DNA from: Polynucleobacter sp. JS-Safj-400b-B2
Lineage (GTDB): Bacteria > Pseudomonadota > Gammaproteobacteria > Burkholderiales > Burkholderiaceae
NCBI RefSeq assembly: GCF_018881975.1
Contig: NZ_JACVPJ010000004.1
Location: forward strand, 202,290-266,289
DNA length: 64,000 nt
Direction of reading: 5' to 3'
The notes under the pieces were generated by a model. The model was not told where the DNA came from. It saw only the letters and a program-made list of their open reading frames with translations, and made no database searches. The translations under genes were made by a program, and so were the position numbers. Positions 11,739 through 13,334 of the stretch are shown here, piece after piece (the stretch's first letter is position 1; the number at the start of each line of letters is the position of its first letter).

Positions 11739-12890
11739 TTAAGCAGCCAATACCTCCAATTGCACATCCGTTTTCCAACGATGAATTTGGCTAAGCGTGC
11801 ATTCAGCACGATCAAGATCGCTTCGCTTGCCAAGATACACTGGCTGGAAAAGGCTGCCTCCAGTAAACGCATAAAGGTACTGAACCTCGATAAGATCACC
11901 TAACGATGGGATATTGGCTGATGGGGGGATGGTGACATTGCCAACATTGATCTCATTACCATTGACGTCATAAAGGGATATGCCGACACTGCGCTGTTGG
12001 TTGATTTTGGTTACCAAACAGGTTGAACTTTCCAAGAATTTGAATTTCAGGAAGTCGCCACCAGAATTGGGTCGTCCTGCCGCATGCTTGGAATTGATTT
12101 TCTTAAGCACAACACCTTCACCGGCAGCCGATAGCACGCTATCGCAAAATGCTTTTGCAGCTTCGATGCCATCCTCTGGGTAGATTGTTGGAATAAGCTT
12201 GATTTGCTCGCCTGACAATTCAAGGCTCTCCAACATCTCCCTAAGTGCAACAAAACGTCGCGCATAAGGCTGCTCTGACACTGTTGGGGCATTAGGGCAA
12301 AGGAGTGTATCAAAGACGTAGAAGACGTTTTTAACAATCTCACCATCGAGATAAAACTGCTCGCTGATTGCTTTTGAGCTCAGAAACTGGGAGAGGGATT
12401 GAGGTACATCGCGACATTGGCCTTTGCGGTTGAAGGCCGTCACTTGATCAACCTTGGAGCCTTTGTGCAGTAACGACATACGATCACCATCGGCCTTAAG
12501 CTGCATCACGTATTGGCCAGTAGCAAATAATTCAAGCACCTCTTCGATCGTATTGAGGGGGTTAAGCAGCTGCGCGCCAAAAGGCGATGTAACGGCCCGA
12601 ACTTCCGAAATTTCGATGACGTTATCACTTGGGCATGTCTGTCTCACGATGCTATAAATAGATGAACCTGAGCCCTTAAGCTTTGCCTCGATTGCCTTGG
12701 TATAGGCTTTCCTTGCGGCATCAAAATCAGAGTAGGGCGCTTTTTCTGGCTGCTGGCGAAGATTGCCGGCCGGGCCATTTTTGATCATAACGCTAAATGT
12801 GTCGTCATCGTTTTGACCAAGAATAACAAGGTATTCTTTGCCTCCGCTATTGCTCGGTGCTGACAGTAATGTTTGTTCTTTAACTTGCAT
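11739..12890 (-). CDS. ATP-dependent DNA (or RNA) ligase, minimal nucleotidyltransferase plus OB type, with an N-terminal WGR-like extension
   Basis: Covalent nucleotidyltransferase motifs: I QLKADGDR (KxDG), III FYLDGEIV, IIIa YVFDTL, IV EGVVLK and V FLKFKF. The first ~80 residues (EYLVILGQNDDDTFSVMIKNGPAGN) are WGR-like. Confidence 0.75.
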   Translation of the reverse strand: MQVKEQTLLSAPSNSGGKEYLVILGQNDDDTFSVMIKNGPAGNLRQQPEKAPYSDFDAARKAYTKAIEAKLKGSGSSIYSIVRQTCPSDNVIEISEVRAVTSPFGAQLLNPLNTIEEVLELFATGQYVMQLKADGDRMSLLHKGSKVDQVTAFNRKGQCRDVPQSLSQFLSSKAISEQFYLDGEIVKNVFYVFDTLLCPNAPTVSEQPYARRFVALREMLESLELSGEQIKLIPTIYPEDGIEAAKAFCDSVLSAAGEGVVLKKINSKHAAGRPNSGGDFLKFKFLESSTCLVTKINQQRSVGISLYDVNGNEINVGNVTIPPSANIPSLGDLIEVQYLYAFTGGSLFQPVYLGKRSDLDRAECTLSQIHRWKTDVQLEVLAA

Positions 12891-12948
12891 GGCATTTCCT
12901 TTTGAGCGTCTAAAGAACTATCATCTCAAGGGAAGTAACAAATGCAAG

Positions 12949-13251
12949 TTAGGAAATTTTATTGGGCAGTGTAGCTGCAAAAACATCAACGCCTTCTTGG
13001 ATGCCTTTGTTCCAATAATGCTCAGTGACATACTCAAAGAACCGAATTGGCGTCTCAAGCGTCCGTGAAAATCCACTCTTTTTCTCACTTTTGATGAAGG
13101 CGTCGATCATCTCGCGACTCTCTGTAGCCCAAAGTAGAAAATCTCCATAAGCCTGGTATTGAAACGGATCTTGTAGGTTTGAGGGCTTGTTTTTGATCTT
13201 GTCAATAAACGAGAGTGTTTGTCCCTGCAGATTCAAAGTCGTTACTCCCAT
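12949..13251 (-). CDS. Hypothetical protein (about 100 aa)
   Basis: Start chosen at MGVTTLNLQ. The longer ORF in the track would run through the tRNA-like gene and is rejected. Confidence 0.35.
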   Translation of the reverse strand: MGVTTLNLQGQTLSFIDKIKNKPSNLQDPFQYQAYGDFLLWATESREMIDAFIKSEKKSGFSRTLETPIRFFEYVTEHYWNKGIQEGVDVFAATLPNKIS

Positions 13252-13262
13252 AAAATTAGTGA

Positions 13263-13334
13263 TGGGCCGAGCTGGGAACAATCCAGCGACCAAAGGATTA
13301 TGAGTCCTCTGCTCTACCACTGAGCTACCGGCCC
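13263..13334 (-). tRNA. tRNA-Met(CAT)-like gene (elongator Met or Ile2/lysidine type) with a non-canonical T-loop
   Basis: Folded by hand on the minus strand: acceptor GGGCCGG/TCGGCCC, D-arm GCTC-AGTGGTA-GAGC, anticodon arm GAGGA-CTCATAA-TCCTT (anticodon CAT), T-arm GCTGG-ATTGTTC-CCAGC, discriminator A. The T-loop lacks the T54-Psi55-C56/A58 consensus, so the gene may be a pseudo-tRNA or an att-site remnant. Confidence 0.55.

Follow-up and report, generated by a model that had tools for sequence, protein, structure and literature searches.

Bacteria normally rely on NAD-dependent LigA, and to our knowledge the purpose of the accessory ATP-dependent ligases on plasmids, integrative and conjugative elements (ICEs) and phages is largely unknown. 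The largest cluster of bacterial ATP-dependent ligases of the NT-OB_2 type mostly carries a WGR domain, and an N-terminal WGR domain with no known function is reported for a Prochlorococcus ligase (Williamson & Leiros, 2020; PMC7470946). Accessory proteins that are WGR-like plus HEAT/ARM-like have been described for type XIII retrons, with no mention of a ligase (Mestre et al., 2020; PMC7736814). Here we report a gene for a small ATP-dependent ligase in a 64,000-nucleotide (nt) stretch from Polynucleobacter sp. JS-Safj-400b-B2 (assembly GCF_018881975.1, contig NZ_JACVPJ010000004.1, positions 202,290 to 266,289 of the forward strand). This whole stretch is referred to as the window, and coordinates are those of the window unless a related locus is named. 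The gene very probably encodes an active ligase in which a divergent WGR domain precedes a minimal catalytic core.

The interval 11739-13334 consists of three features, all on the minus strand: the ligase gene, a small open reading frame (ORF) and a tRNA gene. The ligase ORF has an ATG start with a Shine-Dalgarno-like sequence (AGGAA) upstream. The predicted order of domains is a divergent WGR domain, a nucleotidyltransferase (NTase) domain and an oligonucleotide/oligosaccharide-binding (OB) domain, and the C-terminal end is LAA. The features of the ligase gene are as follows.

11739-12890, minus strand: ligase coding sequence from the ORF list, 383 amino acids (aa), stop codon included
12639-12890, minus strand: predicted N-terminal WGR domain, residues 1-84 (hhalign, profile search of the PDB, AlphaFold2 (AF2) model with Foldseek)
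12036-12575, minus strand: NTase (adenylylation) domain, residues ~106-285 (motif coordinates, invariant columns, phmmer)
12480-12503, minus strand: motif I, QLKADGDR, residues 130-137, with the catalytic K132 at 12495-12497
12333-12356, minus strand: motif III, FYLDGEIV, residues 179-186
12303-12320, minus strand: motif IIIa, YVFDTL, residues 191-196
12102-12119, minus strand: motif IV, EGVVLK, residues 258-263
12036-12053, minus strand: motif V, FLKFKF, residues 280-285
11781-12035, minus strand: C-terminal OB-fold domain, residues ~286-370 (AF2 model, Foldseek, invariant R356 and D358)
11811-11834, minus strand: motif VI-like LGKRSDLD, residues 353-360
11742-11756, minus strand: C-terminal tail EVLAA-COOH, with a likeness to the last residues of the ssrA tag

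A first reading, made from the DNA letters alone (the sequence-only reading), had held that the nucleotidyltransferase motifs are all intact. The five strings that it quoted (motifs I, III, IIIa, IV and V) were all located, and their key residues proved invariant. This was established in a full-length alignment of the ligase with 19 homologues (20 sequences in all, down to 31% identity), in which K132, D134, G135, R137, D182, G183, E184, F193 and D194 do not vary, nor do E258, G259, K282, K284, R356 and D358. The Pfam model DNA_ligase_A_M (PF01068), which had been proposed as a check, matches well above its cut-off (55.2 vs 26.2 bits), and the Pfam mRNA capping enzyme model falls just under threshold. 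The ligase also matches PHROG 114, 'ATP-dependent DNA ligase', with 66 bits. In a phmmer comparison with PDB sequences, motifs I, III, IV and V lined up with their counterparts in archaeal DNA ligases. None of the NCBIfam models for LigD, LigB, LigC and similar proteins comes near its cut-off (TIGR02779 scores highest, with 49 vs 227.75 bits; TIGR02776 reaches 37 vs 373), and thus the ligase belongs to no named NCBIfam equivalog.

An AF2 model of the whole ligase, built on the 20-sequence alignment, has a mean predicted local distance difference test score (pLDDT) of 86.3 and includes a run of beta strands over residues 287-356. When this model was compared with the PDB using Foldseek, the top 35 matches were exclusively DNA ligases, and capping enzymes appeared from rank 36. 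The matches with a probability of 1.00 include the African swine fever virus (ASFV), archaeal, human Lig1/3/4, Pmar-Lig, LigE (TMt 0.69) and T4 DNA ligases, with both the NTase and the OB domain aligned. Human Lig1 on nicked DNA is among the matches.

Comparison with the 74%-identical homologue at a related locus, L001, gave a pN of 0.164, a pS of 0.728 and a dN/dS of ~0.07, with dS saturated. The ligase gene is under strong purifying selection. Given the hidden Markov model (HMM) score, the invariant motifs and the low dN/dS, we conclude that it is a selected full-length coding gene rather than a chance ORF or a pseudogene. A promoter and terminator scan around the locus returned counts not above those for shuffled sequence, and carries no information on transcription units.

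The first ~84 residues are predicted to form a divergent WGR domain, as the sequence-only reading had surmised for the first 80 or so. We constructed a profile from the N-termini of 12 sequences of the subfamily, none of which has a Pfam WGR call. In hhalign this profile aligned to that of the N-termini of WGR-positive relatives with a probability of 98.3% (E 1.2e-14). When used to search the PDB, its best matches were the WGR domains of PARP2 (E 1.1e-3), PARP3 and PARP1, and the profile of WGR-positive relatives found the same PARP domains more strongly. The fold comparison gave a similar result. An AF2 model of residues 1-84 (pLDDT 85.1) has as its top 14 Foldseek matches in the PDB the WGR domains of PARP3, PARP2 and PARP1 (TMq 0.62-0.69, probability 0.99-1.00); in several of these structures the PARP2 WGR domain is bound to a 5'-phosphorylated DNA end. 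The W-G-R triplet that names the domain is N38-G39-P40 in the ligase, so that only the glycine is kept. Relatives have Y/F-G-R at this position, and the subfamily of the ligase has (N/Y/F)-G-P, with the consensus G-P-x-G-N. The invariant residues of the domain are K18, Y20, G39, G42, K70 and Y79.

The C-terminus is a second distinctive feature. An xAA end (LAA, KAA, MAA or IAA) is present in 10 of the 11 closest homologues and in 23 of 120 overall, where ~0.6 would be expected from the alanine frequency. The ssrA-like tail suggests turnover of the ClpXP type, and hence a short-lived enzyme.

The gene can be compared with several described groups of proteins. Like the bacterial WGR-ligases (PMC7470946 and plasmid entries in databases), it places an N-terminal WGR domain on a minimal NTase-OB core, in a protein of ~350-390 aa. 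It is 30-40% identical to plasmid and WGR-positive database homologues, over most or all of their length. RefSeq often gives the plasmid homologues (e.g., those from Variovorax, Rhodoferax ferrireducens T118 and Mycobacterium avium) the name 'WGR domain-containing protein' or 'ATP-dependent DNA ligase'. Unlike the wider group, the branch to which the ligase belongs is small and divergent, has the (N/Y/F)-G-P triplet and is mostly xAA-ended. The cluster of PMC7470946 is defined by the OB_2 domain PF14743, which was not detected in the ligase and is not listed for its homologues, so kinship to that exact cluster is not implied.

The NTase and OB core with motifs I-VI is shared with LigE (6gdr, 4d05), Pmar-Lig (6rar), ASFV ligase (6imn), T4 ligase (6dt1) and Lig1 (1x9n), all with a Foldseek probability of 1.00. 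Four of these enzymes (Pmar-Lig, ASFV ligase, T4 ligase and Lig1) carry an additional module for DNA binding at the N-terminus, at the position of the predicted WGR domain. The ligase differs from these structure-solved enzymes in sequence (12-20% identity) and in that its N-terminal module has the predicted WGR fold, rather than being an alpha-helical DNA-binding domain or the N-terminal domain of ASFV ligase. With the WGR domains of PARP1/2/3, which bind DNA strand breaks, it shares the predicted fold (TMq 0.62-0.69) and profile similarity. Unlike in PARPs, however, the domain is fused to a ligase and not to an ADP-ribosyltransferase, and the signature Trp and Arg are missing. Thus, the architecture is already known in databases, without a biochemical study in the literature that we searched, and the ligase is a new divergent member. 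What sets it apart is a WGR signature lost to Pfam, together with the xAA tail. A ligase in which a PARP-type WGR break sensor stands in for the customary DNA-binding domain would recognise nicks with a naturally compact design, of some interest for ligase enzymology and for molecular tools.

The ligase lies in a region rich in genes for DNA processing. Pfam matches in the window include a ParM-like actin, a weak tyrosine-recombinase match, SPFH/Band_7 proteins, DUF4337, an HD_4 phosphohydrolase, DUF3268, a DnaQ-like exonuclease, a metallophosphatase, DUF1173, a non-specific endonuclease, a NERD nuclease, an N6/N4 DNA methylase, an SNF2 helicase, a C5 DNA methylase and DUF5131. Conjugation genes are represented by a VirB11-like ATPase, VirB4/TrbE and a secretin. 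The VirB4 protein shares 38-42% identity with its counterparts on Cupriavidus, Burkholderia and Polaromonas megaplasmids. The GC (guanine plus cytosine) content is flat along the window (41-49%), so the whole window looks like one element. A PLSDB search with the first 25 kb found no near-identical DNA except a 51-nt match to the tRNA, and the exact ligase protein was absent from the contig index. As judged from its sequence, the window belongs to a new conjugative plasmid or ICE, plausibly of betaproteobacterial origin, and the ligase is located in its accessory region. This agrees with the initial view of the ligase as an accessory gene on a mobile element, with conjugation genes in the window and a VirB4 that is nearest to those of Burkholderiales megaplasmids.

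We consider it likely that the protein is an active three-domain ATP-dependent ligase, most probably one that seals nicks in DNA, and that it is an accessory of the conjugative plasmid or ICE. The substrate is probably DNA rather than RNA, given that the OB domain at the C-terminus carries motif VI, the arrangement of DNA ligases and capping enzymes, and that RNA ligases are absent from the fold matches listed; activity on nicks that contain ribonucleotides may also be possible. By analogy with the chemistry of the superfamily, K132 of motif I would attack ATP to form ligase-AMP. The WGR domain would take the place of the N-terminal DNA-binding domain of larger ligases, recognising the break and positioning the catalytic core, as its position and the precedent of PARP2/3 suggest (the WGR domains of PARP2/3 recognise 5'-phosphorylated breaks). 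AMP would then be passed to the 5'-phosphate of the nick, the OB domain with motif VI would close over the nick, and attack by the 3'-OH would seal it. Such a reaction could serve to seal nicks, or to join fragments, of the element's own DNA in replication, recombination or establishment after transfer, and would be independent of the NAD-dependent LigA of the host. Any specific biological role is put forward only tentatively.

Several observations weigh against this assignment. The WGR model PF05406, suggested earlier as a check, does not match the ligase, either over its whole length at E<=1 or in residues 1-111 at E<=10, and the NCBIfam and PHROG scans for WGR were also negative. The signature Trp and Arg are replaced by N38 and P40, so PARP-style sensing of nicks is not assured. 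The profile match to PARP2 has an E-value of only 1e-3, and the Foldseek E-values are 5e-3 or weaker. Furthermore, no Pfam OB model matched the ligase, some homologues have weak matches to PF09414 (RNA_ligase), and RefSeq labels some of them 'RNA ligase family protein'. Our literature searches returned no biochemical study of the ligase or of the WGR-ligase family. The idea of a degron is based on sequence resemblance alone. Finally, neither an oriT nor a relaxase, which would place the ligase relative to a leading region, was found in the window. We do not take the Pfam result as refuting a WGR domain, because PF05406 occurs together with PF01068 in many database homologues (35-40% identical) and because the profile and structure tests are positive. 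Pfam is blind to this domain owing to the change from W-G-R to N-G-P.

The wider family is common, with 669 database matches. Genomes that represent species of many phyla contain relatives in 306 stretches, and further relatives are on 26 viral contigs and 19 PLSDB plasmids; many members are chromosomal or on viral contigs. The branch of the ligase is small: only 4 of 1.84 billion representatives clustered at 50% identity match its WGR profile at E<=1e-10. Most of the weaker matches to this profile are either of WGR-ligase length (350-420 aa) or short (~80-160 aa).

We clustered the ORFs within 4 kb of the ligase over 112 loci and scanned the cluster representatives with Pfam. The recurrent neighbours are a DnaN-like sliding clamp (13 loci), a PD-(D/E)XK nuclease (11 loci), DUF932 (8 + 5 loci), a YqaJ exonuclease (7 loci), a Gp3-like protein (7 loci), RadC (7 loci) and DUF1281 (5 loci). 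These recurrent neighbours include neither a reverse transcriptase nor Ku nor any RNA end-healing enzyme. Loci of the subfamily consist of runs of small genes on the same strand, with ParB, SSB, DUF4942, YAcAr, methylases and a type IV CRISPR protein. For example, the homologue at L002 is beside SSB and ParB. On the conjugative plasmid of Rhodoferax T118 and on a megaplasmid of P. aeruginosa, the gene directly upstream of the homologue encodes a methyltransferase or a DUF4942 protein. These neighbourhoods point to DNA transactions of mobile elements. Type IV CRISPR systems are typical of plasmids, and at L113 (14108-15728) a gene for the type IV CRISPR-associated protein Csf3 and a CRISPR_assoc gene are present ~5 kb downstream of the subfamily ligase P0012. 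At L116 (2233-3393) a gene for the RNA ligase RtcB, beside an IS200-type Y1 transposase, is found ~2 kb upstream of P0014, a WGR-ligase of the subfamily. This RtcB gene is the sole RNA-repair gene seen near any family member.

Two features lie upstream of the ligase gene.

13263-13334, minus strand: tRNA with a CAU anticodon (Rfam RF00005, 61.8 bits vs a gathering score of 29; all stems paired; also called by ARAGORN)
12949-13251, minus strand: conserved orphan ORF (95-100 aa) in the gap that separates tRNA and ligase

The sequence-only reading had placed a tRNA-like gene directly beside the ligase, across a gap of ~370 nt. The adjacency is real, as the tRNA is 372 nt upstream of the ligase start, but the gap is not empty, given that it holds the small ORF. 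The true start of this ORF may be the TTG at 13236, after GGAG. It is 75% identical to the ORF at L001 and 96% identical to those at two other closely related loci, L004 and L005. Only 3 homologues were found in a whole database of 5.8 billion clusters, and the ORF has no Pfam, PHROG or PADLOC match.

The order tRNA, small ORF, ligase is kept only in the closest relatives, which are L004 and L005 (97% identity of the ligase) and L001 (74%). Of the 111 family loci scanned with ARAGORN, 14 have a tRNA within 5 kb; L113-L121 have none. At L122 (5684-6225) a tRNA-Arg(TCT), the orthologous tRNA(CAT) and the orphan small ORF are followed by an Rrf2 regulator, and there is no ligase. L122 is part of a related element with the same Band_7, RNase_T-type exonuclease and DUF3268 neighbours. 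Because of this pair without a ligase, and because of the rarity of tRNAs at the loci of the family, we conclude that the tRNA travels with the small ORF and not with the ligase. The tRNA and the small ORF are a separate module that happens to adjoin the ligase upstream. A functional link between tRNA and ligase, as implied by the sequence-only reading, therefore does not hold. The ligase is a well-formed but expected member of a family that is visible in databases.

These observations bear on the idea that the enzyme is an RNA repair ligase (e.g., one that reseals tRNAs cut by anticodon nucleases, in a counter-defence package with the tRNA genes of the element). The nearby tRNA would fit this role, as would the tRNA arrays and transfer-messenger RNA (tmRNA) on the contigs of the closest relatives, the weak PF09414 matches and RNA ligase names among homologues, and RtcB at L116. 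In addition, some enzymes of the DNA ligase type accept nicks that contain ribonucleotides. We nevertheless regard RNA repair as improbable. As far as we know, an NTase domain followed by an OB domain that bears motif VI is characteristic of DNA ligases and capping enzymes, and not of the known RNA ligase families Rnl1-5. The best fold matches are all DNA ligases, the ligase itself has no match to PF09414 at E<=1, and the distribution of tRNAs among the loci, with the ligase-free pair at L122, argues against a shared function. The neighbours in the family are genes of DNA metabolism, and no end-healing kinase or phosphatase (Pnkp-like) partner was identified beside the ligase. It is also rather unlikely that the ligase is an anti-defence or establishment factor. 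Such a factor would be expressed early in the recipient, where it would reseal nicks left by toxins or by the nicking defences of the host, or complete the strand that enters, before being degraded. This proposal is a refinement of the nick-sealing explanation, and not a true alternative to it. It draws on the long, mostly same-strand accessory run that is rich in orphan methylases, nucleases and a helicase, and on the conserved C-terminal xAA, which fits a transient protein. Relatives also occur beside DUF4942, ParB, SSB, DUF932 and RadC, which are typical of plasmid and ICE leading regions. However, there is no evidence for the order of DNA entry, with neither oriT nor relaxase found in the window; no ligase is listed for leading regions in the anti-defence literature that we searched (the leading-region paper never uses the term 'DNA ligase'); and many members of the family are chromosomal or on viral contigs. 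If the ligase does aid the establishment of conjugative DNA, it would be an addition to the known establishment and anti-defence functions. The RNA-repair and anti-defence roles had both been raised by the sequence-only reading, and both remain speculation for which we found no evidence. The C-terminal OB domain, with its motif VI, and the matches in fold indicate a DNA ligase.

A different connection is suggested by PADLOC, in which models for retron type XIII accessory proteins are the only matches. PDLC02920 ('HEAT-ARM_XIII') matches residues 242-374 of the ligase with 42 bits (E 1.2e-11). The same model matches 19 of 20 family members (best E 3.3e-35), and PDLC02973 ('WGR_XIII') matches 10 of 20 (best E 1.1e-29). 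The names of these models fit the accessory proteins of PMC7736814, and the similarity extends across the WGR-ligase family. Even so, we consider it very unlikely that the ligase is a component of a defence system like the type XIII retrons. Unlike in those systems, which have an adjacent retron reverse transcriptase, a non-coding RNA and a SWIM/DEDE protein, no match to a reverse transcriptase (RVT) or SWIM-type protein was found among the neighbours that we scanned with Pfam (7944-25317), and no Rfam retron RNA reached threshold in the window. The recurrent neighbours of the family include no reverse transcriptase, and all the catalytic motifs of the ligase are intact here. Literature searches that combined HEAT-ARM with PADLOC or defence terms returned nothing useful. 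The HMM similarity may instead indicate that the retron XIII accessory proteins are ligase-like. A broader proposal, to which we give little credence, is that WGR-ligases are a class dedicated to the establishment of mobile elements, and that the 'WGR/HEAT-ARM' accessories of retron XIII are homologous ligase-like enzymes. A PARP-like break sensor would then guide a minimal ligase to nicks with a 5'-phosphate, in element DNA that has just been transferred or is under attack, and the ssrA-like xAA tail would limit the lifetime of the enzyme. If this were true, the same module would be present on both sides of the conflict between host and mobile element. The explanation that is effectively refuted is the one in which the gene is a fragment derived from LigD, or a Ku-dependent ligase for non-homologous end joining (NHEJ), and possibly a pseudogene. 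JGI labels several homologues 'bifunctional non-homologous end joining protein LigD', and among the NCBIfam models TIGR02779, for the ligase domain of LigD, scores best, a likeness to the LigD/LigC ligases of NHEJ and base excision repair. In contrast to these enzymes, the ligase scores far below the cut-offs of TIGR02779 and TIGR02776, has no polymerase or phosphoesterase domain, and differs in its OB and N-terminal modules, and no Ku was found among the scanned neighbours. The ORF is full-length, aligns with homologues from end to end and is under purifying selection (dN/dS ~0.07). Thus, the 'ordinary LigD-fragment pseudogene' that the sequence-only reading had kept as its counter-case is excluded.

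The tRNA itself was labelled tRNA-Met by ARAGORN, from its CAT anticodon. We rejected this label in favour of a tRNA-Ile2-like identity on comparison with E. coli: positions 8-52 (the D and anticodon arms) are 89% identical to an E. coli gene annotated as tRNA-Ile, and this E. coli gene, which has a CAT anticodon, is likewise labelled 'Met (cat)' by ARAGORN. The tRNA is most likely a tRNA-Ile2 that would read AUA after lysidine modification. It carries C4-G69 and C5-G68, which we take to be determinants for TilS. In the genes of the element, AUA is used for 13% of Ile codons and occurs 9.4 times per 1000 codons.

The T-loop is odd in the copies in the window (ATTGTTC, in which the usual U54, C56 and A58 are absent) and at L004 (ATCGTTC). 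In addition, the copy in the window has TCA where other copies encode CCA. The orthologues at L001 and L122 have a canonical T-loop and CCA. The copy in the window may be impaired or decaying. The odd T-loop was also considered as the junction of an attachment (att) site; orthologous tRNAs occur in the same gene order on related contigs, and the GC content of the window is flat. The 51-nt PLSDB match mentioned above (window 13286-13334, the 5' part of the tRNA) is 92% identical and is to the Aeromonas veronii conjugative plasmid NZ_CP136591.1, which has no listed gene there.

Related contigs carry more tRNA genes than the single one in the window. L001 (3080-3469, 9091-10551) has 14 tRNAs in ~1.5 kb and, directly downstream of the ligase, a tmRNA with the tag ANEDRFALAA. 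L004 (13939-14618) has four tRNAs, one of which has an unusual AAA anticodon. Arrays of tRNAs, together with tmRNA, are unusual on apparent conjugative elements.

On the other side of the ligase gene, L004 (9236-9763) has a single 175-aa ORF 3' of the ligase. It matches the first 42 aa of the window ORF 11185-11655 joined to residues 14-146 of ORF 10738-11178. The window has therefore undergone an insertion or a rearrangement immediately 3' of the ligase (10738-11655). Far from the ligase, in DNA that otherwise resembles a conjugative element, a cobalamin riboswitch (58729-58943, plus strand; Rfam, 71.5 bits) was identified upstream of a 665-aa ORF (59005-61002).

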